From the NCBI GenBank assembly GCA_000091205.1, contig AP006502.2: DNA of 64,000 nt. One strand, written 5' to 3'. The stretch is from Cyanidioschyzon merolae. Taxonomy: Eukaryota. Below, piece by piece: positions 4,621 to 44,168 of this stretch (its first letter is position 1; the number at the start of each line of letters is the position of its first letter). The notes beneath the pieces are model-generated. The model was given only the letters and a program-made list of their open reading frames with translations. It had not been told where the DNA came from and did no database searches. The position numbers and the translations under genes were made by a program.

Positions 4621-7188
4621 GAATGCATTACTCTGCTGCTCTCGGATGCCATTTGGTTGGCGATCTTATCGAAAACAGGTTTTCTTTGAACGACATCGAT
4701 TATTTGACTTGACGAATTCACGAAATGATCGGCATGAATTTGTGAGCAAGTCGTCGTGAGACAGCACCGAGATTTTTCCATTCCCGCCAAGGAAGCAGCG
4801 CGAATTGCGGCGTCTATGGGTCGCCCTGAAACAGGTAAATCAAAAAGATGAAGATTGCGTGATATGAACGTGCAACGTACAGGGAAAGGAAAGGAATAGA
4901 CTCTTGAACGCGAGAGTTGCATAATAATAACGGTCATGTCATGAAATCTGGTTCGAGAGCGAAGCGAATTAACTAGTGTCTGCTAAAGTAACAAATTCAA
5001 GCTGCGAGCAGTCGAAAAAGTCGCTCCGAAAGGACGCCGGAGAATCCTACAACCATCCATGAATCCGTATGCCCCAGTTGCGGCAGTCGGAATGACGAGA
5101 GTGTGTATCAGAAATGTTCGGAGAATACGTCGAATGGCAGAAACAGGGCGAGCACTTCAGTGTAACAATCTAACCCGACACGCTTACAGATGACGCGACG
5201 ACAATGGCCAAACTTGGTCTGATGCGCGCTTTCGTATTCATGGATATTCTACTCGAACCCTCTTTGCAATCCTTTTCCACCTCATGCGCGTCGGTACGCC
5301 GGCAAGCGTCCAGGCTGTGGAACGCATGCTCCCATTTTAGGTTCAAGCAGCATGCTTTGGGATGAAAACGCCCCCGTGAATCCATGATGAGCAGTAGAAT
5401 AGAAAACTGAATAAAGGGAATGGCTTTGGCTGCAGACCGAACGTCCGCTTGAAGAAACCCACATGGAATTGGTATACAGGCCCACGAAACGGAATTTTAT
5501 AGTGCAAAATCAAATATTCGAATCAGACTTCTCCCACGGCGTCGCTGCAGCAGTCTGTAATCAGGGACGAAACCACGGCAACTCCCCAGATCCGTCTGAG
5601 CTTCGACATCCCCACAAGAGGCTTGCCTTCCGAGACGGAATTTCGATCTATCCAGCATCGTCATATGCGCCGCCGCCGCTATGGCCGCTATCGCCTGCAG
5701 AGACATGATGGCGTTGTGGTGCTGTGAACTGCTTCAGCACGGAAAAACTGAATGGAATCATCCGGAAGCGAAAACAAGTTGCTACGTTCGTGCCGAGAGC
5801 GCCACTTGCAGTTTGAATACAGGCAACGCTTCTGATGATGTTTTGCTTGCGGCAACATGTGCCATAACCCCGGTACCACTGCAACGTGGGAGAAATGCTT
5901 CAAACTTGGACCCTTTCGAGACACGATCTCCGAACCCGTTTCGCCAGTTGAAAGTGGCTGTGCATCTTTTGGGCTCGAAGAAACATAGAGAGTCAAGAAG
6001 CTGCACTCTCCGTCGGCAAAGAGACGAACAAGACATGCATACGAGATCATAGACGTTGCATAGTCTGCAACATTGCTGCCTTCGTTGGGCCCAAGAGGCG
6101 AATCGCTGTATGGTCCGACACCGCAGTTGCCATTCGTTCAACGTTCTCTGCTAATGTTCTGGACGCTGCTCATTCGCTGTCTCTTTTAACCTGAGGCTCA
6201 CTCTAGAATAGGAACTGTACACGTGAGTTTCGAATACGAGGGGTATCCATCCGCAATCGCTCCCAAGGTTCTACAAGACAACTGGCAAGAAGAACCTAAT
6301 ACGTAACGTTCTTCCGGACAGCGTTCTTGCTCGGTGCAGTCAACGCCCGCTGTGCTACTATACTCTGTGACACGCAACGAATAAATAAATAGGCCTGAAA
6401 AGGCGATTTCTATTCTGGTGTCGTATGCAAGAACACGAGGCTCGTCTCGCAGCTGAGTATACCTCAGTGAACGATAGTCTCGCTGACGTCGATTCCAAGG
6501 ACAGCTTCACAACGGAGACGCCGTCTAGGTGCACAGGAAAAGCTTGTCCAGTGAGCCCATGGTGACAAGCTCCCCAGTTCGTCGTGGAATCAGTGACCAG
6601 CTGCGCTATGAAATAACCAGTCAGCAGCAAAGAGCCAAAGCGGTTACAAGTCCAGAGCCGAGTGCTCGAAATTGCTTGACAGGGTGCTCTCTCGTGCCTC
6701 TGCCTTCAAACGGCTCCTGCAGTCACTTAAAGTTAAGGAAGCAGACTGAGTGAGCTCCAAAAGCCGTGCGTGAGGCTCAGGGAACCGAAAGTACCCCATC
6801 AACCGAGACGCACCTCGTGCGCTACAGGCACCGGCTGTAGGAAAAGAAAACTTCGTTGAGCAACGTGCCTGCGCTAGGCAGTCAAGCGAGCAGGGAACTT
6901 TGCCGTCTCCACCTCTACCGCAGCCGCCGTACAGCAGCTTGCTCTATATGAACGCTACAAGATAGCTAGCGCGGAGTACCCATGCGCCAAGGTTGCCGCA
7001 GTGCCCCTCAAGGTCACCACCGGACTGCTCCGAGATGCCGGAGCAGCACGGGATTTCTTGCAGGCGCGCAGCGTACACGTTATCGCGTTGCTACCACTCC
7101 AGGGAAGGCTGTTTCAGGGCGGACTTGTAGACGGACCAGCACAGCTTTGAACTTGACAATCCCGTGAAGCAAAGGTGCGTTTGCGCCG

Positions 7189-7854
7189 ATGGGCACCAGG
7201 AAAGAATTGAGCCTCAGCGAACGCAAAGTCGTGGTAAACGTTTACGACATTGTCGACCTGGCAAGCACAAACGACCGGCTCTACCGGCTTGGACTCGGGG
7301 TATACCACACTGGTGTCGTTCTGGGAAGAAGGGAATATGCGTACGGTTTTAAGTGGGGCCCCGGGACGGGAGTTTTCTATACGACACCTCGCTGTGCGCC
7401 AAACGCGCGCTACCGTCAGAGCCTAGAGTTCGGGCCGATTATCGTAACAGCAACGGAGGCGAGAGAGCGCTTCCGAAGAGTTTGTGAAGAGTTTACTGGT
7501 TCGAGCTATCATCTATTGGACAAGAACTGCAACACATTCACCGCTCGAGTTGTTTATGATCTCACGGGCCAGAAACTACCGTCCTGGATCAACCGAACCG
7601 CCCGTTGGGCATCGGTTTTCCGGTGCTTGCTTCCTCCAGAGCTAGCGCAACCGCAGTCCGTGCCGAGTGCAGAGATGCTGCCCTCAAGTCATGCACTGGA
7701 ATATCGATCCATGTTATCTGGTCCTCCGGGGACGGAGGAATGCTCCGATGGGGACGCGCACAGCGGAAGCACGCTGTCGCGGGCGAGCACGCCCCCGAAG
7801 GAGGACTCGCAACCCTTGCCTCCTCGAGTTGAGCTGAACGAGATCCTCCAATAA
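7189..7854 (+). CDS. PPPDE/DeSI-family desumoylating isopeptidase (DUF862).
   Basis: ATG start. VVVNVYDIVDL...GVYHTGVVLGRREYAYGF matches the PPPDE signature (VxLNVYDL...GxxHxGVEV..xEYxFG), followed by a conserved Cys-containing core. Confidence 0.7.
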   Translation: MGTRKELSLSERKVVVNVYDIVDLASTNDRLYRLGLGVYHTGVVLGRREYAYGFKWGPGTGVFYTTPRCAPNARYRQSLEFGPIIVTATEARERFRRVCEEFTGSSYHLLDKNCNTFTARVVYDLTGQKLPSWINRTARWASVFRCLLPPELAQPQSVPSAEMLPSSHALEYRSMLSGPPGTEECSDGDAHSGSTLSRASTPPKEDSQPLPPRVELNEILQ

Positions 7855-10800
7855 GGAGACAATCGCACGCTGCAATATCTACAAGTAAGTCAGAAAGGCT
7901 GATGGATTTCAAATTTTTACTTTCCTGCACGAAGACTATATGAAAAACGTGCTCACCACTGCCGAGGAATGTCTTGAGAGAAGCTGTTTCGCGAAGCGCG
8001 CAGTAGGTGCTCGAAACGGGCTGTTGATGTCTTGTAGATGAAACCGGCAGCACATGGATCCGTTTTTGCAGGTCTCCGGAGAGTATCTGTGCAGTGCCAG
8101 TGCGCTAGTGCATCGTGCACACGGATACTCGTCGCTGTGTGATATATTCAGACTTGTGTGCTTCCACGAATCGCATCCTACTTATGTGTGCTCCGATTCT
8201 GTTCTCTGCCCGAGCTTGCACGATCGCACGTGCAAGCACTTGGCAGGGACACGTTTACAGCGAGTACACAAACTTGGTCTCGTTTGTGCGGAAGCGATCT
8301 CGGTAACTTCTGAGCGCGGCGCTCGAGTGCATAGAGGTCTGTTGCGCCGAGCAAGTGCTGCAGTCTCGAGGACAGCGCCCCCGGACTAGCACGGTCGTTC
8401 AAATAGCTGGTGTGTCGGCGAGTGTTGGTAGAGGACAGGTGACGCTTGCATGCCATGTTCGCCGCATTACACTTGGGAACTTGAAACGACGACACAGGTA
8501 CGTTGTTCTGCGGTCACGATCCCGATACGCTGATATAGGCCTGCTGGTTTTCCAAGTCTTTTTCAAAAGCATGTGCTCTAGAGCACGCTCCTTACCAGTA
8601 ACCGAACGGGAATCCCGGGGAGAGCCGCAAACGTTTCTGTTTTCTTCACTGTAAAGTCATGACCTCGTTATAATCAGAGCGTTAAATTTTGGAACATCTG
8701 TACCAGCACATTTTCTTGATTCGAATCGTTTCTCTTACAAGTATTCAACAGAAAGAATGTTTCATGTATGTTGGGGAAATGTGGCGGTAAGACCCGATGC
8801 TCGCACCGTCAGCTTGCGAGGAAATGGTCTCATGTGTTCAACTCACTCATTCTGGGGTCAGCAGGTAGATGAACTACCCTATTTGTTGTCACCACACAGA
8901 ACGTCTTGCGCTGAATAGCTAATTTCCCAAACCCTGTTTGTAAGGCAGTATCCTCGCCAATTCATTTTACTCTGGATGCTCTCCGAGAAATCGTGTTGAA
9001 AAAGCTACTGAATGTGAACATGGCATATTGTTGAGACGAACTCTGATAAAGAGACACGAATGGGCGAAGAAAGTATGCAAGCATCTCTGCAACTCCTTCG
9101 TGCAATGAAAAATACTCCACTGATATCGCACTGAAACACGAACGTGTAGTATATGAAGGACTCGTGCTCGTATCATTCTATCAGAACATATTTGGTACAA
9201 ATACTAGTCCTGGATACGGACGCCCAAAGAGGGGCAAAGCGCTATTCATAAAAAGATGAGATGAAGGACCCCATCCAGAACAGCACAGCTTCCTACTCGA
9301 TGGCGCCTCGCCCAGCTTTCCTCGCTTTGGTGTATCTCGTGAGGAACTATTCCTTGGGGTTCCAGGCGCAGGGCCCCCCGTCGTCCATATTTTTCAGTAA
9401 TCCTTCCATCAAACCTTTCGACGACAACACTGCCTATGTTCGGGACGAAATGTGCAATACGACCTTGTCGTAGAATCATTGATTTGCAGAAACACGTCCC
9501 AACATATCTCGACCTGTCGCCGCGCCACATCGTTGATCGGAATTTCCACTGCGCTCGTACCAGAAAGCCTCAAAACAACCACAAAGATTAGAAGCATATG
9601 CGGCCAATGACGAACGCTTCATGGGGTGCACTCTCTGGGTATTCTACCCATCGTAATCTCGCATTGGTGTTCCCGAAAACTGGGGACGTATGTAATGTAC
9701 TCATGGGCCAATTGATGAAGGCAAAAGACGAGCTGGAGCCGGAAGAAATCAAAGCGGTAGCGAGCTCCGAAGTGATGTCGCAAGAAGAGCGAGAATCACA
9801 TCAGATCGTCCAAGCAGCACGCGTTAATCTCGGCCTCGGACGGGCAGACGTCGCATCCAAAGGACAGTCGAACTGCCACAGATACCCAGCTTGCATCTTG
9901 CGCTATTACGTTTTCCTGAACAGAGCTTACCAGAGAGCAATGCAGACTCCCACCCCGAATCCGAATGCCTTAGCCTCCGAAAGCGTCTGTTCGTTGTCAT
10001 TCCCGTATGTCAGATAAAGGTCTATTCCGTCACCGTTTACAGTCGTGCACTGAACTGTATGGCCTTCTCAGAAAGCGACGGCCCGTCTCTGCGTAGAAGC
10101 ATGAAGGATTCGACCAATTGCGCGATGAGCAGCAGCAGAACACCTTCAAAGAATCTCATAGTTACAGAGGAAGTTGAAAGCTGTTCACACGTAAAATGGA
10201 TCGATGAAAAGTCAGTCTGTATGTAATTGATGAAAGCTTGGCCTGAATTGAGCGACGAGTTTCATTTTCAAACATTCAAGGTAGATGAAGAGGTGAAATC
10301 CGTTTCGGATATGGATCACGGATTGAAGGGCATCATGGCCGTCGCCATACCTTCAAGTCAAATGGATGGAGATACAGGGCAGAACTGAAAGCAGATGAAT
10401 TAACAAGACTGTTCCATTGCTCAGCGTCATAGAGATTTGGGGTTGATGGACACAAAGAGACGTACCAACATTTAGAATCAGGGCGTCCGGACCGTCCTCG
10501 ACGAATTGAGCACTGTCTAGAGCAGCAAAATGCGCCGCACGCTGCATTTAGAGCGCACATGATTTTCCAAATGGTCTAAGCGAATGAGCTTTGGCAGGAG
10601 TACTTGCGACCACGTCTGTGTAGCCAGCATTTTGGGTTGTATGGAGATATCACGTGTTCCTGAACATGTTCAATGATTTAGAGAATGATGTGACCCATAC
10701 GCGCCGTCTTTCGGTAGTAGGCTCAGGCTCTGAATGTACAGACGCGTGCGGCAGCCGTACGCCTTCTCCTTCGACGACAGCATACAAAGAGTGCAAAAAT

Positions 10801-31189: not shown

Positions 31190-32392
31190 ATGCCGTGCAG
31201 CTGTGCGTCTGGTTGCCAAAAGTCAAAGAATGGTGGCTCTACTCCGTCCATTCGGGACCACGTGGCGGACTACTACGGCAAAACGCTTCAGTCAAGCGCC
31301 GACCTAAAGACGAGCGCTTGCAAGCTTGCCGCGGCTGTCCCGGAGAGCCATCGCAAAATCCTGGCGGATATCGCTGACGAGGTCCTGGAAAAGTTCTACG
31401 GTTGCGGGTCTACGCTCCCCGCTGATGGATCTCTCGAGGGCGCAACAGTCCTAGATCTGGGCTGCGGCACAGGTCGCGACGTGTACCTCGCTTCAAAGCT
31501 GGTTGGCGAGCATGGTAAAGTCATTGGGGTGGACATGCTCGATAATCAGCTTGAAGTCGCCCGGAAATATGTAGAATATCATGCAGAAAAGTTTTTCGGT
31601 AGTCCGAGTCGGTCGAATGTGCGCTTTCTCAAGGGTTTCATCGAGAACCTAGCCACTGCGGAACCGGAAGGTGTTCCGGACTCCTCGGTAGATATCGTGA
31701 TAAGCAACTGTGTTTGTAACCTATCGACGAATAAGCTGGCGTTATTCAAGGAGATCCACCGTGTCCTTCGCGACGGAGGTGAGTTGTACTTTTCCGATGT
31801 CTATGCGGATCGCAGGCTGAGCGAAGCTGCCCAACAGGATCCGATCTTGTACGGAGAGTGCCTTGGCGGTGCGCTCTACTTGGAAGACTTCCGTCGCCTC
31901 GTGGCTGAGGCAGGGTTCCGCGACGTGCGTTTAGTTTCGGTTGGTCCCGTCGATGTAAGTGATCCGCAGCTACGGAAGCTCGTACCGGACGTGCAATTCT
32001 ATTCGTGCACGTTTCGATGTTTCAAGGTCGCGACACTGGAGGCAACCCGAGAAGACTACGGCCAGTCAGCCACATACTTGGGCGGGATTGGAGAAGAATT
32101 CAAGCTCGATCGCTTTTTCACGTTCCCCAAAGAGAAACCTGTGCGTGTGGACCGCAACACCGCTGAGATCATCCGCCACAGTCGCCTTCATCAGTGGTTC
32201 TCTGTGAGCGCAGAGCAACAGCACATGGGATTGTTCAAAGCAAACGATTCTTACGCGTTGTTGCACGCACCACTGAGTATGCAGGTTGAGCAGCTTGTCT
32301 GTGAAGTGAAGAAAGGATCCACCGATACCTGCTCGGAACAAGCCTCTGCAAATGGTGCCTCTTGCTGTGCGACAGGGCGACGATGCTGCTGA
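31190..32392 (+). CDS. AS3MT: Arsenite S-adenosylmethionine methyltransferase (AS3MT/ArsM family).
   Basis: ATG start. [30 protein letters not shown]...[12 protein letters not shown]...[10 protein letters not shown]...[10 protein letters not shown] is near-collinear with AS3MT motifs, including the conserved Cys residues and a Cys-rich C-terminus. Confidence 0.85.
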
Positions 32393-32943
32393 CCAGCGCA
32401 CAAACCGATCGCGATGTCACCGGGCAGGTAATGCCAAAACACCTCACATGTCGTAGTTTACGGAAAGGAAAATTCTCCAGCGATGCATCGAGATGAAGAC
32501 TCGGCATCGCAGCGGTAGCTCTGAAGCCAAACTTGTAAACGCTGACTTGCAGCACGCTGAACATATTGCAAATTTGGTGCCATGGACACCACCGTATGAA
32601 TACTTAAGGATGCGGTTTCGGCCCCACAGCGCACAAAGCTCACAAAGACGTCACCCCATATAACCACCAGCACAGATCGCAATCGATCCCGATCGCGTAT
32701 CGACTTGTGCGTTGAGGGAACACGAGCGAGCGCGTAGACGGTAGTGCACCCGCGGAAGCTGCGCGATTGGCCCCGCGCAGCTGGATCGCCAGCGGCGGCT
32801 GGCCGGCGCGCCGAGCCCTCCACTCCAGCGGCCTGCGAGATACTGGATGCTGCCGGAGCGACTACCCTGTCTGTAAAAGTGCGCTGCGTACCAGCGCTCG
32901 CAACAAAGCAAGCGTTTGTGCACAGTCTCGCACGAGGGTGCTC

Positions 32944-35900
32944 ATGCGTTTGTACACCCACGGGATGAAGGGTCAGCTTTATAGGTGCGAATCCGTGGAA
33001 CGAGAACACGCAGGCAAATGGAAGGCTGGGTGGCAACAGCTTCCGGGGCTTCTCGGCTTCATCCAGAGTACAAGCCGCCCGCATTGTAGCTCCCGTTGGC
33101 GGCGTGGACTGAAAGATCCGCGAAGATCCATCCGCTATGTTGGAACCGTAAGCACTGTTCGGCGGAGGCTCTTGTTGAGTACCGGTGGGGGCTCAGGTTC
33201 CGACGAGCAGGATCCAGGCCCCGAACCCGAGCAGCATAAAAAGAACCCGCTCAGGCAAGTTCTTGGCTATGCGGATACACGTGTTTTTAAGGATCCGTCG
33301 GGAAAGAAGATTGTGCACGGTGTTCGCGTACCCGAAACGGGCGAGTTCCTTCGTGTTCGCTATCCAGCACACGTGGAAATACCCGCGGTAGGCGAGCGAA
33401 TGTTGCTTCTCGGGCGCTTCTCTTCCGATGAGAACGGCACGGAGATTTTTGAGGTTCTCGACGTGCGGTTTGTATCTGACATGGAGGGCCCGTCGCGCCC
33501 CGTTTCGAATAACCGTCATGTTTGGGATTTTCGCCAAAACGGCCACGGCTTGCTTTCCCCGTACGCTCTGGTAGGAATGGAAAGGAACACGTCTGGCCCC
33601 GCCAGCAACGCCGACCAACAGAAAACCTCTAAGACACCTAACCCCGAAACAGCCAGCAATCCAGAAGGGCCTGCATCGAATCCTCCGGAGCGTCCTCGTG
33701 ACGAAAGCGAGCGCAAGTCCAGCGAGCCGTCAGCATCTCAGCCGTCCGACATCGCAGAACGTGTCAGCGCGCAAGCCGTTGAAGCAGAGCGTCCGTCGCA
33801 GAGCAGCCTCGTTCTGCATGGAGACACTGCAGGCAGCTCATCTGACACCAAAGCAAGCAATGTAGCAAGTAGCGAGCTCCCGCCAGCGCAAGAATCCCGG
33901 GAAGTCGAGCGTTCGACAATAGAGGGTACGATCAAGAGCATCCTCTACAGGAACGCGCAAAATGAATTCGTTGTATGCGTACTATCCACCGGTGAGAAAA
34001 TTATTGGATCTTGCGCAGAGGACGTGGACTTTCTCCTCAAACCGGGCGCACGCGTTCGCCTCCGAGGTGCATGGGTTACGCATCCAGTCTATGGCAAGCA
34101 GTTTCAAGCCGGAAAAATACGTGAGAGTGCGTTCATCGCCGAAAGCGAGCAAGACCAGGGACGTGTGTCGCTAGTGGCACTCAAATCGTATCTGGCATCC
34201 GGTGTTGTGAAAGGCGTGGGCGTTAAGATGGCCGAACGCATCATCAATCGCTTTGGTGAAAGCACACTCCACGTGCTGGACACTGACCCTGCCAACATGC
34301 TGACACAGGTCGAGGGAATCGGTCGCGTCCGAGCAGAGCAGATTGCGACTGCGTGGAGAGCCCAGGCGCCGTTGCGCGCCCTGATGCTCTTTCTGAGACC
34401 GTACGGCATCGGGCCTGCGATATGTAATCGCATTGCTCGTGCGTATGAGGGTGACCCCGATCCCATTGGCCGCATTCGACTGAACCCGTACCGACTTGTG
34501 GAGGACGTGCGTGGTGTCGGTTTCAGAACGGCGGACCAGATCGCTGCAGGCTTAGGTATAGATCCCGAGTCACCTGAACGGTACGCAGCTGGCCTCCTTA
34601 ACGTGCTTCAAACGGCAGAAAACCTTGAGGGCCATAGTTTTCTCCTGAAGAGCGATGCTTTTGACCGCGTACTCAGACTTCTTTTTGGAACCAACGCTGC
34701 TGCTTCCGATGATACGAACCTTGCGGAAAGGCAAGCGCGATTCTCACAAGCGGTTGAGGACCTGAAACGTCGTCAGGCGCTGGTTGTGAATAATATCGGT
34801 GGCGACGAGGAGCCTCACCTGCTGACACCGAGGATGGACAGAGCTGAGCGTGGGATCATAGAGCACTTGAGGCGGCTCTTCTTCCACTCGAGGAAGCCGA
34901 TCGACTCCAGCGAATCCGCACGGCGCGCAGTCGAAGGACACGTCAACCGCGAGCACATCCTTCGGTGGATTAACGTGAACTATCCGACGCTATCGGCGGC
35001 ACAGCGCGAAGCGGTCTGTGTTGCCGCCGAGCAGCCTATCATGATTCTCTCAGGTGGACCTGGTGTCGGCAAAACGCATACCGCTACGGCCATTGTGCAC
35101 ATGTGGCGTACGCTGCTCGGAATTGAGAACGTCCAGCTGACTGCCCCCACGGGCCGAGCTGCGAACCGCCTGGGCACTGCGGCCAATGTTTGGGGTAACG
35201 CGCGCTGTGCCACCATTCATCGGTGCCTTGAATGCGATAGGCAAGGGAGGTTTCTTCGAAACGAACACAATCAGCTCAATACGAAGGCAGTGATTGTCGA
35301 TGAATGCTCCATGATGGATGCCCTGCTGGCACATGCGCTCCTCCAGGCGATTCCGAACGGAGCACGCCTGGTCCTCATCGGTGACGCAGACCAGCTGCCA
35401 AGTGTAGGTCCAGGCCGTGTCTTTGCGGATCTTTGCGAAAGTAATGCGTTTCCCACGATATACCTTCAGGAAATCTTTCGACAGGCCCTCAAATCGATGA
35501 TTGTTCGTGTTGCGCACGAAGCCCGGAACGGCCGCTACCTCTCGATGCCCCGAGCAAAGACTCCCGCAGAGGCGCTAGAGCTTGGGCGGAAAACCGACCT
35601 GGTCTTTCTGGAAGCAGCTGATCCAGTGATAGGTCTGCAGTTCCTACTCGAGCTGTGCTGTGGTCGAGATAACGAGCCAGAGGGCGAACGCAAGCCCGTG
35701 CTCCCCTTTGACCCGCTCAAGGAGATCCAGGTCCTGTCGCCCGGACACCGTGGCGTCATAGGCGTGCGTAACCTGAACCTTGAACTGCAGAAACGCCTGA
35801 ATCCCACTCGACTGCCGCTCTCAAAGCAAGCACGGACGTCGGAAGTGTTTCTCCGCATCGGTGATCGGGTCGTGCAAAATATGAACAACTACGACAAGGG

Positions 35901-36309
35901 CGTTTTTAACGGAGAGGTCGGCACTGTGATGCACGTCCCCGACCTCGACGCGATCGACAGCGACAACGATCAGAGTAGCCAGCTTCTGGTGGAATTTCAG
36001 AACCACGACGACTGGGTCGCCTACGACTATCCCATGGAAGCCGCCGATCAGCTGCAGCTCGCCTGGGCCATGTCCGTGCATAAGGCCCAAGGCGGCGGCT
36101 ACCCGTGCGTTGTGATACCCATCTTTATGACACATTCGGCCCTGTTGACTCGGAACCTCTTCTACACGGCTATCACGCGAGCTCAAGAGTTATGTGTGGT
36201 TATCGGGAACCTGACGGCCATTCGGATGGCAATTCGTAATGAAATCACTACAAAGCGCAACACGAGCCTCCTGCAACGCCTTGATGAACTGGAACTCGAC
36301 GCGAAATAG
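32944..36309 (+). CDS. RecD2-type SF1B DNA helicase (bacterial-like architecture) with a long low-complexity N-terminal extension. The ORF is open from 32767 (TTG); the first ATG is at 32944.
   Basis: Tandem HhH region (KGVGVKMAERIINRFGESTLHVLDTDPANMLTQVEGIGRVRAEQIATAW...), Walker A GGPGVGKTH, motif II LVLIGDADQLPSVGPG, and C-terminal SVHKAQGGGYPCVVIP...YTAITRAQE. Confidence 0.8.
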   Translation: MRLYTHGMKGQLYRCESVEREHAGKWKAGWQQLPGLLGFIQSTSRPHCSSRWRRGLKDPRRSIRYVGTVSTVRRRLLLSTGGGSGSDEQDPGPEPEQHKKNPLRQVLGYADTRVFKDPSGKKIVHGVRVPETGEFLRVRYPAHVEIPAVGERMLLLGRFSSDENGTEIFEVLDVRFVSDMEGPSRPVSNNRHVWDFRQNGHGLLSPYALVGMERNTSGPASNADQQKTSKTPNPETASNPEGPASNPPERPRDESERKSSEPSASQPSDIAERVSAQAVEAERPSQSSLVLHGDTAGSSSDTKASNVASSELPPAQESREVERSTIEGTIKSILYRNAQNEFVVCVLSTGEKIIGSCAEDVDFLLKPGARVRLRGAWVTHPVYGKQFQAGKIRESAFIAESEQDQGRVSLVALKSYLASGVVKGVGVKMAERIINRFGESTLHVLDTDPANMLTQVEGIGRVRAEQIATAWRAQAPLRALMLFLRPYGIGPAICNRIARAYEGDPDPIGRIRLNPYRLVEDVRGVGFRTADQIAAGLGIDPESPERYAAGLLNVLQTAENLEGHSFLLKSDAFDRVLRLLFGTNAAASDDTNLAERQARFSQAVEDLKRRQALVVNNIGGDEEPHLLTPRMDRAERGIIEHLRRLFFHSRKPIDSSESARRAVEGHVNREHILRWINVNYPTLSAAQREAVCVAAEQPIMILSGGPGVGKTHTATAIVHMWRTLLGIENVQLTAPTGRAANRLGTAANVWGNARCATIHRCLECDRQGRFLRNEHNQLNTKAVIVDECSMMDALLAHALLQAIPNGARLVLIGDADQLPSVGPGRVFADLCESNAFPTIYLQEIFRQALKSMIVRVAHEARNGRYLSMPRAKTPAEALELGRKTDLVFLEAADPVIGLQFLLELCCGRDNEPEGERKPVLPFDPLKEIQVLSPGHRGVIGVRNLNLELQKRLNPTRLPLSKQARTSEVFLRIGDRVVQNMNNYDKGVFNGEVGTVMHVPDLDAIDSDNDQSSQLLVEFQNHDDWVAYDYPMEAADQLQLAWAMSVHKAQGGGYPCVVIPIFMTHSALLTRNLFYTAITRAQELCVVIGNLTAIRMAIRNEITTKRNTSLLQRLDELELDAK

Positions 36310-36751: not shown

Positions 36752-37558
36752 CTAGAACCGCTTCTTCTTCTTGGGTTTGTCCATGGACCAGGGTTGCAGA
36801 CCTATCTTGGGGTAGTGGTCCTCGGCGCGACTAAAAATGCGCAAAACCGCCCGCACAACGTCGTCCAAACGTGCCTCTTTTCCCGTTACAGGTATGGTCA
36901 CTTTCTCCGCAACCTCGTTACCGGGGAGGTTTTTAGAGGCCTCGCTCAGTGCCTGCAGGTTCGTGATGACGTCGTTGAGCTCCTTGACATCCTTCATCAA
37001 CTCGTCCCGGATCAACCGCGTGCGCTCCAGAAGCGCGTCGAGATCCTCGATAGAGCACCCACTCTCTAGGCAAATCTGCGCCTGCTTCCGAACGGTCAAA
37101 CGCTCCTGATCGTCGACAGACATGCGCAGTGCAGCGGAGGCGAGTGTGAATCGGGACGACGTTCCACGGCGCGTGAGCTGCGACAGCGCACAAGTTGTAG
37201 CGTTCACCCTCGGGCGCACGAACGTCAGTCCTGTACTAGGAGTCAGTTGGAAGCACAACATAGTTCCCAGCAGCGGAGCCACAACGACAGCGTTATACGA
37301 AGCGCCTGCTCTGACGACGTCGACGATCATGTACGAGATCCGAGGGCGTCGTCTCGGGGCGAGAGGCGACGCGAGTCGCGCGCACACCACCGCCGCCGCG
37401 GCGCTGCAGCGGCAGGCAGCACAGCGCGCTCCGTATCTGCGTGCCGCTGCGGCGCTGCGATGCCGCTGCAGGCACCACCAGCGTGTGCCAGGCGGATCAG
37501 CAGCGGCGCCCTGCGCAACGTGTCTTCCATATGGTGCGTTCGCCCGGGTACGATCCAT
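36752..37558 (-). CDS. Hypothetical protein (268 aa, ATG start). Ala/Arg-rich N-terminus, coiled-coil-like C-terminus ending KPKKKKRF.
   Basis: ORF with a plausible ATG start. No domain recognised. Confidence 0.3.
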   Translation of the reverse strand: MDRTRANAPYGRHVAQGAAADPPGTRWWCLQRHRSAAAARRYGARCAACRCSAAAAVVCARLASPLAPRRRPRISYMIVDVVRAGASYNAVVVAPLLGTMLCFQLTPSTGLTFVRPRVNATTCALSQLTRRGTSSRFTLASAALRMSVDDQERLTVRKQAQICLESGCSIEDLDALLERTRLIRDELMKDVKELNDVITNLQALSEASKNLPGNEVAEKVTIPVTGKEARLDDVVRAVLRIFSRAEDHYPKIGLQPWSMDKPKKKKRF

Positions 37559-38534: not shown

Positions 38535-39509
38535 TTGGGCGAAGCACTTGCCACGGAACCTATGCGAGCGACTTTTAAGTCAACCGCCTTTCTGCAAGTC
38601 TACGGTGGTGGTACGACTCCCTGCAGTAATCGTCACAGGCTGAGGCGACAGACTTGGACTTTGGGCCGACGGCGATCTGGCTACAAGTGCGCCTCCGTTG
38701 CAGCGCTCTCGCTCACACAGCGGACTGAGTACTCTCGGAGAGAACTTCTTCGAGCTTTTTCATTGTTGCCGGCAACCGCTGTCTTTGCCTATACGGCAGC
38801 GATGACCGTGCAGCAGGCAGCTGCAGCTGTCGCGCCGTCGACGACTGGTGCACCGGCAACCGCACCCAAGACGGGTGCTGAGATACCAGTCGCACCGTTG
38901 CCGTATCCATATAATGCCCTTGAGCCGGTCATTGACGCCAAGACGATGCGTCTGCACCATGATAAGCATTTTGCGGGATACGTGAGCAAGACGAATGCGG
39001 CGCTCAACGAGGAGCAGCGGAGGACGTTTCCGGCGATCCTGAGCCGGCTCTCGACGATATCGGATCGGGCGTTGCGCGAGACTGTGCGGAACCAGGGTGG
39101 CGGCGCCATAAACCACCGTATTTTCTTTCAGACCATGCGCGCACCGGTAGCGGATGCCCAGAAGAATGTTCCGGACGGTGCCCTTGGTGATGCTATAGCG
39201 CGGCAGTTTGGATCGTTTGAAGCTTTCCAGAAGGAATTCAGCCGGGCCGCGAAATCGTTGTTTGGTTCCGGTTGGATTTGGCTGTTCGAGCTTGGCAACT
39301 CAACGCGCCGAGAGTTGCGGATTGGGACCTTTGCGAACCAGGACTCGCCGCTCATGCAGGGCAATTTGCCGCTGCTCGGTCTCGATGTCTGGGAGCACGC
39401 CTACTATTTACGCTACGGACCCGATCGAGGTGCTTACGTCGATGCCTGGTGGCGAGTCGTGAACTGGCCTGCTGTGGCCAGAATCTTCGAGTCCCGTCAG
39501 CTGCCGTAG
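38535..39509 (+). CDS. Fe/Mn-family superoxide dismutase with a ~130-aa N-terminal extension. The ORF is open from 38535 (non-ATG). Internal ATGs, for example at ~38562, may be the true start. Possible targeting presequence.
   Basis: PYPYNALEPVIDAKTMRLHHDKHFAGYV, FGSGWIWL and DVWEHAYYLRYGPDRGAYVDAWWRVVNW are canonical Fe/Mn-SOD motifs. Confidence 0.8.
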   Translation: MGEALATEPMRATFKSTAFLQVYGGGTTPCSNRHRLRRQTWTLGRRRSGYKCASVAALSLTQRTEYSRRELLRAFSLLPATAVFAYTAAMTVQQAAAAVAPSTTGAPATAPKTGAEIPVAPLPYPYNALEPVIDAKTMRLHHDKHFAGYVSKTNAALNEEQRRTFPAILSRLSTISDRALRETVRNQGGGAINHRIFFQTMRAPVADAQKNVPDGALGDAIARQFGSFEAFQKEFSRAAKSLFGSGWIWLFELGNSTRRELRIGTFANQDSPLMQGNLPLLGLDVWEHAYYLRYGPDRGAYVDAWWRVVNWPAVARIFESRQLP

Positions 39510-42500: not shown

Positions 42501-42797
42501 CAATTTGGTTTGAAAGCGTGCGAATTGAGGCGAAAAGAGCGACACTCGAGGTAACCAGTGACTTGTTATTCTAGGGACCGCGCGACGGAACCGACGCAAC
42601 TCTTGCAGCGAACTCGTGCCGAACGGCTTTAATTGCGGACGTGCTACGCACGCAACGACTGGGGACGCTCTCCTTTCAGTTGGTGGATAAATTCGAGTGC
42701 TGAGCGACTGGGTTTTGTCACATTGTTTGTGAACTCGTCGACGTGTGCGTTCAAGTGGCGAGACACGAAGCTACCTCTGCACATACGCACGCATACC

Positions 42798-44168
42798 ATG
42801 CGGCAATTCATACCAGTGATTCACGGCTCGTTGGACTGGATTGCTTTGGAGGCATGCTCGCTCGCCTCACTGAAACCGGTCACATTACCACATCAGCGGC
42901 ATCGTGAGCCGGCTGCAGCGGTTGAACTGCATCCAAGCGCCGCAAAATTGTACAACTATTGCAGATTCAATGGAATCCCCGGTAAGCAGCTGGATTCCGT
43001 ACCAGAAGGCGCAAGCGTCGCTGAAGAGGCCCATGTCGCTGTATACTTGCAGCCGATAACGCCAGTGACGGGCGAGAGGCATCGTGCCCGTGCACCGCTT
43101 CTTGTGGACTCGCCGCACTCTGGAAGAATCTATCCGGTCGACTTTGAATTCTATCCGGAATTCACCAAGCTCCGCCGAGGCGAGGACGCCTACGTCGACC
43201 GTCTGGTCGCGCCTGCGTTGCACAGTGGCGCTACCGTAATCGCTGCTCTCTTCCCTCGAACCTATATTGACGTGAATCGGCACGAGAACGACATCGATGT
43301 GGAGCTGCTAGCCTCGCCATGGCCGTACCCAGTGAGGCCTTCCGAGAAAACCGCTCGTGGTCTGGGTTTGTTGCGGCGCTATGTGATTCCCGGCGAGCCG
43401 GTTTACGCCCCCGGGAAGCGTTTAACAGTCGAACAAGTTCACCATCGTATTGTATCTTATTTTGAGCCCTATCTGACCCTAGTCGCGAACGCGATAGATG
43501 CTCTCCACTCCGAGTTCGGTGTTGTCTACCATCTAGACGTACACTCGATGAAATCCAGGGGAAATGCCATGACGCCGGATGGTGCTGGCGCTTCGCGTCC
43601 CGATGTTGTGGTCGGTGACCTGCGCGGCCTGGCATGCGAACCAGAATTTACGCAGTTTGTCGTACAAGCGCTCGAGGCCGAGGGCCTTAGCGTCAGTGTC
43701 AATAAGCCGTATGCTGGTGCCGGCATTCTACGGCGATTTGGAGCACCTCAGGATGGAGTACACTGTCTGCAAATAGAACTGAATCGAGCGCTCTATCTGG
43801 ACGAGGAGCAGGTGGAATGCCTGAGCGATGGCCGATTTGAGCGGCTGCAGAGCGCGCTCGCTCGCGTCTTTGCACGCGTTGCTGACTGGACGCTGAAGCG
43901 TGCCGCAGAGGAAATGGGCAAGCCGATCTCAGAGCAGGACACGGAAGCGGACTTTGTGCGCCGCGTACTTCCGTCCGTCGCGCGGCGCTTGCGCAGCTCG
44001 GGAATGCGCGTCTCGGCGAGCCTTCTGGAGCCACTGCTGCTTGGCGATGCCGACGGGGGTCATGAGTCGGACCCTGACTCCAATGACAGTCTCGACAGTG
44101 ATTACGAGCAAGAACCGGAGATTTCGGAGAAGCAATCCCCAAAAGGCTTGTACTGCATCCCTTCCTGA
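42798..44168 (+). CDS. N-formylglutamate amidohydrolase (FGase) family protein with an acidic C-terminal tail. The ORF is open from 42633 (TTG); the first ATG is at 42798.
   Basis: LLVDSPHSGRIYP, YIDVNRHENDID and VVYHLDVHSM are characteristic of the FGase/HutG-like family. Confidence 0.65.
   Translation: MRQFIPVIHGSLDWIALEACSLASLKPVTLPHQRHREPAAAVELHPSAAKLYNYCRFNGIPGKQLDSVPEGASVAEEAHVAVYLQPITPVTGERHRARAPLLVDSPHSGRIYPVDFEFYPEFTKLRRGEDAYVDRLVAPALHSGATVIAALFPRTYIDVNRHENDIDVELLASPWPYPVRPSEKTARGLGLLRRYVIPGEPVYAPGKRLTVEQVHHRIVSYFEPYLTLVANAIDALHSEFGVVYHLDVHSMKSRGNAMTPDGAGASRPDVVVGDLRGLACEPEFTQFVVQALEAEGLSVSVNKPYAGAGILRRFGAPQDGVHCLQIELNRALYLDEEQVECLSDGRFERLQSALARVFARVADWTLKRAAEEMGKPISEQDTEADFVRRVLPSVARRLRSSGMRVSASLLEPLLLGDADGGHESDPDSNDSLDSDYEQEPEISEKQSPKGLYCIPS

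Follow-up and report, generated by a model that had tools for sequence, protein, structure and literature searches.

What is a helicase of bacterial design doing among the nuclear genes of a hot-spring red alga, where did it come from, and in which compartment of the cell would it work? The question is raised by a 64,000-nucleotide stretch of DNA from Cyanidioschyzon merolae (contig AP006502.2 of GenBank assembly GCA_000091205.1), called the window here, which carries a gene for a RecD2-type helicase of superfamily 1B (SF1B). An earlier reading made from the letters of the window (the sequence-only reading) had pointed to an open reading frame (ORF) at 32767-36309, to the tandem helix-hairpin-helix (HhH) and SF1B motor layout typical of bacterial RecD2, and to a eukaryotic nuclear context. 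The ORF is present on the plus strand and runs without interruption. Judged by sequence and a predicted structure, amino acids (aa) 320-1121 of its annotated product are a complete bacterial-type RecD2 with all domains in order. The best explanation, with a probability of about 0.6, is that the gene is functional and encodes an ATP-driven 5'-to-3' translocase and helicase on single-stranded DNA (ssDNA). This helicase, bacterial-derived whatever its donor, would be imported into an organelle and, by analogy with bacterial RecD2, act there at replication forks and on RecA filaments.

Identity of the helicase

The boundary at 32767 is merely the first TTG past a stop codon. The annotated start is the ATG at 32944, and the 1121-aa product read from it matches XP_005539092.1 / BAM83056.1 of C. 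merolae 10D residue for residue. The gene and the domains of its RecD2 core are as follows:

32944-36309, plus strand: RecD2-type helicase coding sequence, complete, single exon, 1121 aa plus stop, matching the annotated protein
32767-32943, plus strand: in-frame stretch from the TTG to the first ATG, outside the annotated protein (which starts MRLYTHG) when ORF and annotation are compared; probably 5' untranslated region
33913-34125, plus strand: canonical RecD2 N-terminal OB domain (OB_YrrC, aa 324-394), from Pfam and the AlphaFold2 model
34207-34641, plus strand: tandem HhH, comprising HHH_5 (aa 422-472) and HHH_RecD2 (aa 474-566), from Pfam
34987-35535, plus strand: SF1B motor domain 1A (AAA_19/AAA_30, aa 682-864), from Pfam and motifs
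35773-35997, plus strand: RecD-type SH3 domain (domain 2B, SH3_13, aa 944-1018), from Pfam
36058-36204, plus strand: C-terminal part of motor domain 2A (UvrD_C_2, aa 1039-1087), holding motifs V and VI, from Pfam

The Pfam order (OB_YrrC, HHH_5, HHH_RecD2, AAA_19/AAA_30, SH3_13, UvrD_C_2) is that of bacterial RecD2 proteins such as those of Deinococcus radiodurans (PDB 3E1S, 3GP8 and 3GPL) and Bacillus subtilis (RecD2/YrrC), in which OB_YrrC, HhH and HHH_RecD2 are followed by domains 1A, 1B and 2A with SH3; the SF1B motifs are common to both as well. With the NCBIfam equivalog TIGR01448 (SF1B helicase RecD2) the protein reaches 635.5 bits, where the cutoff is 500, and it covers model positions 1-712 of 713; the nearest solved sequence is D. 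radiodurans RecD2 (3E1S, E = 6e-52). A full-length AlphaFold2 model, built from a 77-sequence alignment, is confident across aa 320-1121, with predicted local distance difference test (pLDDT) values mostly above 90 in the core. The best PDB matches of this predicted model in Foldseek are the three D. radiodurans RecD2 entries (template modelling (TM) scores, target-normalised, of 0.84-0.88; E down to 7e-43), followed by RecD of the RecBCD complex (TM about 0.62) and then by Dda and Pif1 (0.4-0.55 for Pif1). The bacterial layout described by the sequence-only reading is thus borne out by the Pfam order, the equivalog score and the predicted-structure match.

The protein's database product name, "probable exodeoxyribonuclease V, alpha subunit" (on a 1,621,617-bp chromosome record), is imprecise. 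RecBCD RecD (E. coli RecD, TIGR01447) has the SF1B motor and SH3 domain in common with the C. merolae protein, but the name fits poorly because that subunit lacks the OB_YrrC/HhH N-terminal region and functions within the RecB/RecC complex, and because the corresponding models stay below cutoff here (TIGR01447, 213.3 against 310.15 bits; PRK10875, 134.5 against 671).

HELB and Pif1 belong to the same SF1B superfamily and 5'-3' polarity class, but OB_YrrC and HHH_RecD2 are hallmark modules of RecD2 and set the C. merolae protein apart from both; the Pfam PIF1 match is sub-threshold (16 bits against 25.9). When 1.84 billion representatives were scanned exhaustively with HMMER, 38,144 homologs were returned, of which the best 150 were inspected. 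These have RecD2 architecture; most are as long as bacterial RecD2 proteins (700-770 aa), and three turned out to be RecD2-type proteins of eukaryotes. No HELB was identified among the 150, most of which lack source names, and no dedicated HELB profile was used. Together with the TIGR01448 result, this upholds the earlier choice of RecD2 over HELB.

The motor motifs are located as follows:

35053-35076, plus strand: Walker A, GGPGVGKT (sequence)
35299-35313, plus strand: Walker B, DECSM (sequence)
35380-35406, plus strand: motif III, GDADQLPSV (sequence)
36079-36105, plus strand: motif V, HKAQGGGYP, with Gly-Gly replacing Ser-Glu (alignment of 383 homologs)
36166-36183, plus strand: motif VI, TAITRA (sequence)

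Motifs I, Ia (APTGRAA, within domain 1A), II, III, IV and VI are intact, including the motif VI arginine. Altogether 98 of the 104 columns that are at least 93% conserved among 379 bacterial RecD2 sequences are kept.

Relatives in algae and bacteria

The best match in the exhaustive scan is an ortholog, P0252, found in the cyanidiophycean assembly GCA_041825655.1 and in three metagenomes. The two cyanidiophycean proteins are 57% identical overall and 69% identical in conserved columns. The gene order SURF6-ArsM-RecD2-SOD-FGase is kept around P0252 in the assembly and the three metagenomes, and the gene has therefore been inherited vertically at this locus in at least two cyanidiophycean lineages.

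The third-best match is a 1216-aa protein of the glaucophyte Cyanophora paradoxa with eukaryote-style insertions (EP00741_P016870, P0104, from EukProt). A further eukaryotic RecD2 of 925 aa, P0115, lies at 5146-7923 of metagenome contig L055 (ERZ23491056), where SRP72, TEX47-like and REX1B genes adjoin it. Immediately before its OB domain, P0115 carries what reads as a textbook presequence of about 85 Arg/Ser/Ala/Leu-rich residues. Like the C. merolae gene, both are eukaryotic genes that encode the full RecD2 architecture behind an N-terminal extension. They differ from its product in retaining the motif V Ser-Glu, share 36-39% identity with it, and have a single OB domain each by the OB_YrrC profile, preceded in Cyanophora by about 140 residues. 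The Cyanophora protein also has several Ala/Pro/Gly-rich insertions and a low-complexity C-terminal tail of about 230 aa.

Bacterial matches share 36-43% identity with the C. merolae protein; where a source name is given, they are bacterial RecD2 proteins spread over many phyla. A pattern-based scan of GTDB genomes, a non-systematic sample with no bearing on the donor, picked up 49 loci in many bacterial phyla, with identities of 24-43% (33-37% where the match was full-length). A word-indexed search with a four-sequence alignment recovered the same bacterial set only, missed even the 57% ortholog and was uninformative for that reason. Some bacterial RecD2 proteins vary the common design: in a set comprising P0144/P0261 (from a deltaproteobacterial metagenome-assembled genome), P0135, P0173 and P0305, one has four tandem OB_YrrC domains, one has an N-terminus resembling a DnaQ-type exonuclease and one a C-terminus resembling uracil-DNA glycosylase (both judged by eye), and one carries an intein (Pfam Intein_splicing, LAGLIDADG_3).

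The N-terminal extension

Unlike bacterial RecD2, the C. merolae protein is nuclear-encoded, has the Gly-Gly pair in motif V, and has 328 extra residues, counted from the ATG at 32944, in front of the core:

32944-33198, plus strand: N1 (aa 1-85), basic presequence-like segment and candidate organelle targeting peptide (composition, predicted disorder)
33235-33477, plus strand: N2 (aa ~98-178), additional OB fold with five beta strands, ordered over aa ~101-178 (predicted structure; no Pfam match)
33484-33903, plus strand: disordered Ser/Pro/Glu/Ala-rich linker (aa 181-320, ~140 aa; composition, and pLDDT below 50 at aa 180-319)

This region had been taken for about 400 aa of low-complexity sequence. 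The length was an overestimate, and Ser/Pro/Glu-rich disorder describes only the linker, the one truly low-complexity portion. A plain low-complexity description also missed the folded N2 domain and the basic N1. The N2 fold is conserved in P0252, and the deltaproteobacterial RecD2 with four OB_YrrC copies provides a rare bacterial precedent for tandem N-terminal OB domains.

N1 has 21% Arg plus Lys and 5% Asp plus Glu, a net charge of +13, and an amphipathic stretch at about aa 52-69, and it is predicted to be disordered. Reported presequence lengths in C. merolae are 59±23 aa for mitochondrial and 78±17 aa for chloroplast proteins (PMC11298712), and N1, at about 80-85 aa, falls in this range.

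Proposed function and localization

In the proposed mechanism, the basic N1 would route the protein into the plastid and/or the mitochondrion, where the helicase would load onto 5' single-stranded tails at stalled or collapsed replication forks. It could then unwind or remodel branched DNA and displace the organellar RecA (CMK061C) from ssDNA, an activity known from B. subtilis RecD2, while the two N-terminal OB folds might contact ssDNA or an SSB-type partner. The B. subtilis enzyme acts as a 5'-3' helicase, remodels forks, takes RecA filaments apart and binds SsbA and RecA (PMC10804225). The mechanism is proposed by analogy with it; C. merolae has organellar RECA and SSB (PMC3914683, PMC4166229). 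Import is favoured by the textbook presequence of P0115 and by precedent in the alga itself: DnaG, gyrase A/B, Topo IA, Pol I, SSB and RECA of C. merolae are, like RecD2, encoded in the nucleus, descend from bacteria and carry N-terminal extensions. Their known or predicted location is the plastid or mitochondrion (PMC3914683, PMC4166229), and for bacterial-type DnaG, gyrase, Pol I and SSB the localisation is to organelles (PMC3914683). The same organellar DNA-enzyme inventories of C. merolae contain zero mentions of RecD2 (PMC3914683, PMC4166229).

Several observations weigh against an imported, fully bacterial-style helicase. The near-invariant Ser-Glu of motif V (HK[SA]QGSE[YF]) is lost, which may have altered the coupling of ATPase activity to translocation. 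N1 carries Glu at positions 16, 18 and 20, which is unusual in a clean transit peptide and would admit a nuclear localisation signal (NLS) instead. Among the 150 best-scoring homologs of the HMMER scan, no ortholog from other red algae ranks above the bacterial matches, and with a distribution this patchy, horizontal gene transfer (HGT) specific to one lineage is no worse a fit than a long-standing role in organelles. Finally, the phylogenetic placement of the gene shifts with taxon sampling.

Origin of the gene

The bacterial ancestry of the C. merolae RecD2 is certain. The choice offered by the sequence-only reading, an endosymbiotic relic or a horizontal acquisition, is the right frame for what remains, and the trees choose neither. 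In rough terms, the donor has about an even chance of lying in a non-cyanobacterial HGT; diverged endosymbiotic gene transfer (EGT) is possible but doubtful, and some other route is unlikely.

The EGT explanation deals with origin alone and can be combined with the organellar function proposed above. It holds that RecD2 came with the cyanobacterial ancestor of plastids and that the C. merolae copy has diverged too far to be placed. Its appeal lies in the BLAST results, in which the best matches of the Cyanophora protein, P0115, P0252 and the C. merolae protein all belong to one Planktothrix-like group; the contig of one group member is rich in HIP1 palindromes. With Cyanophora as query the group scores 672-618 bits and the next match 570. 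With P0115, which retrieves proteins sharing 59-69% identity with Planktothrix RecD2, the group scores 610-563 bits, and its lead over other matches is smaller than the 40-100 bits seen for Cyanophora. The top six matches of P0252 all fall in the group, and the C. merolae protein is marginally cyanobacterial, its top match being Planktothrix at 437 bits, tied with another at 436.

Contigs L056/L057 carry a cyanobacterial-type RecD2, P0287, between genes for a Y-family polymerase (IMS) and HU. Seven HIP1 palindromes, a cyanobacterial feature, occur in 20 kb of the contig with P0287, and transposases lie nearby.

Bootstraps of maximum-likelihood (ML) gamma distances separate the eukaryotic proteins further. 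A clade of at most 30 taxa with all cyanobacterial sequences is joined by Cyanophora in 86% of replicates and by P0115 in 71%, but by the red-algal pair (C. merolae and P0252) in only 20%. On these sequence comparisons, the Cyanophora and P0115 proteins clearly prefer the cyanobacterial RecD2 sequences, although the clade that holds these also includes non-cyanobacterial members. ML placement used a Gonnet-derived single-matrix model with four gamma categories on a fixed, optimised backbone. It attached the red-algal pair to the stem leading to four orphan long branches, with a likelihood weight of 0.93 and a support of 0.40 by resampling of estimated log-likelihoods (RELL). Once the four orphans were removed, the pair shifted to the Firmicutes/Bacteroides stem (RELL 0.45), and no placement branch exceeded a RELL of 0.45. 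Under the same fixed backbone and single-matrix model, positions of the pair in or next to the clade of cyanobacteria, Cyanophora and P0115 were 24-56 log-likelihood units worse (RELL 0.01-0.02). A cyanobacterial origin of the C. merolae copy is thus not supported by the sequence analyses, which lean to a source other than the cyanobacterial lineage behind the Cyanophora and P0115 genes. EGT is retained among the candidates because the branch is long and the model simple.

Other signals proved weak or misleading. In the first neighbour-joining tree, based on Kimura distances, the sister most often recovered for the red-algal pair was Cyanophora, a point in favour of EGT, but the bootstrap was only 31.5%. 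A larger neighbour-joining tree joined the pair to Thauera, Acidiferrobacter, P0084 and P0187. This is attributed to long-branch attraction, because all four are orphan long branches and the ML placement moves once they are removed, and Acidiferrobacter is not named as the donor. A two-residue insertion apparently shared with the cyanobacterial subfamily (W-I-x-E-R-F) proved to be an artefact of the alignment, since WINERF of the red algae and WAQERM of the other subfamily can be aligned with no gap.

An inclusive account would give RecD2 an unrecognised part in maintaining organelle DNA. Inherited from the cyanobacterial ancestor of plastids, it would survive in Cyanidioschyzon-type red algae, Cyanophora and at least one more eukaryote, and in cyanidiophyceans it would later have been remodelled by gain of the second OB fold and replacement of the motif V Ser-Glu. 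This account is speculative and rather unlikely.

A possible nuclear or cytosolic role

Alternatively, a horizontally acquired RecD2 could serve the nucleus or the cytosol, for instance at nuclear replication forks or in nuclear repair suited to hot, acidic, metal-rich habitats, with its N-terminus serving as an NLS or interaction region. This explanation is unlikely, and it is a serious one because N1 combines acidic residues at positions 16-20 with Arg/Lys clusters (RRGLKDPRR, RRR and KK) that could form an NLS. A distribution confined to Cyanidioschyzon-type algae and the lack of a specific affinity to cyanobacteria would suit it, as would the roughly 1% of HGT genes with adaptive roles that Cyanidiales carry (PMC6629376). 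However, RecD2 goes unmentioned in the main texts of those Cyanidiales HGT surveys that were consulted. P0115, another eukaryotic RecD2 and one whose N-terminus is clear, looks organelle-targeted from its sequence, and the bacterial-type DNA enzymes of C. merolae have so far been found in organelles (PMC3914683). Import into an organelle is still the preferred reading.

Integrity of the gene

A third explanation, that the gene is a decaying helicase relic or encodes a DNA-binding scaffold without motor activity, is very improbable. It draws on the motif V change and on the six deviations of the C. merolae protein at the 104 near-invariant positions (bacterial median 1, 95th percentile 5). The altered motif V position is Glu in 377 of the 383 aligned homologs and Gly only in the two cyanidiophycean proteins. 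Against decay, the Gly-Gly pair is kept in both species although their proteins have diverged so far from one another, and the 3.4-kb ORF is open in both. The other motor motifs are intact, and the predicted structure is confident. Strain and environmental variants change the protein only at aa 10, 13, 224, 591 and 663, none of them within domains, and the helicase is apparently under constraint. The 3 synonymous and 5 non-synonymous differences between strains are too few for a usable ratio of non-synonymous to synonymous rates. In SF1 structures the acidic residue of motif V touches the nucleotide, so the Gly-Gly pair may tune ATP coupling rather than abolish activity.

Genomic setting

The RecD2 gene of C. 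merolae is a genuine nuclear gene with host-like composition. Its GC content, GC content at third codon positions and codon usage are indistinguishable from those of its neighbours (correlation of relative synonymous codon usage, r = 0.81). The eukaryotic nuclear context claimed earlier is confirmed by flanking genes on the nuclear chromosome that encode Pex2/12, a NatA auxiliary subunit, AMPK-beta, SURF6, ArsM, an Fe/Mn superoxide dismutase (SOD), an FGase-family protein, an aldehyde dehydrogenase (ALDH) and a homolog of retinoblastoma (RB). Bacterial contamination or mis-assembly, which the bacterial nature of every closest non-algal relative might suggest, is effectively refuted by this position between eukaryotic genes of a finished chromosome, the native codon usage, the locus order repeated in an independent assembly and in metagenomes, and the eukaryote-style linker and N-terminal extension.

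Novelty and significance

The gene has stood in the public annotation for years under its RecBCD-style name, and the present assignment is a refinement rather than a discovery. A literature search turned up no publication about a C. merolae RecD or RecD2 and none linking RecD2 with plastids, and the microarray literature and supplements for C. merolae yielded no usable RecD entry. The protein adds a eukaryotic member to a known kind, and its variant features are the extra OB fold, as predicted, the motif V Gly-Gly in the alignment, and a probable presequence.

Inventories of algal and plant organellar replication and recombination enzymes list no RecD2-type helicase; if import is true, a bacterial-style helicase that remodels forks and opposes RecA would be at work inside an organelle. 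C. merolae is genetically tractable and has one plastid and one mitochondrion per cell, and a role of the helicase in organelle genome stability is therefore directly testable. The presence of RecD2 in at least three eukaryotic lineages offers a small test case for endosymbiotic versus horizontal gene origin, and the extra OB fold and conserved Gly-Gly pair are handles for studies of SF1B mechanism.

Neighbouring genes

Directly upstream of the helicase, at 31190-32392 on the plus strand, lies the gene for CmArsM, the crystallised arsenic methyltransferase (PDB 4FS8, 4FR0 and 4KW7; E = 1e-252). Just downstream, on the opposite strand (36752-37558, minus strand), is a 268-aa ORF with an Arg/Ala-rich N-terminus, the C-terminal sequence KKKKRF and no match in Pfam. 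An N-formylglutamate amidohydrolase (FGase) family protein is encoded at 42633-44168 on the plus strand (PF05013, E = 2e-59), with about 150 aa preceding the domain in the mechanical ORF. This family is mainly bacterial, and the gene is also kept downstream of RecD2 in the related alga. The SOD gene, at 38535-39509 on the plus strand, encodes an N-terminal extension of about 110 aa beginning MRATFKSTAFLQVYGG. This extension is rich in Ser, Thr and Arg, has early Phe residues, and resembles a red-algal organelle transit peptide in sequence; it may offer an internal comparison for N1 of the helicase.

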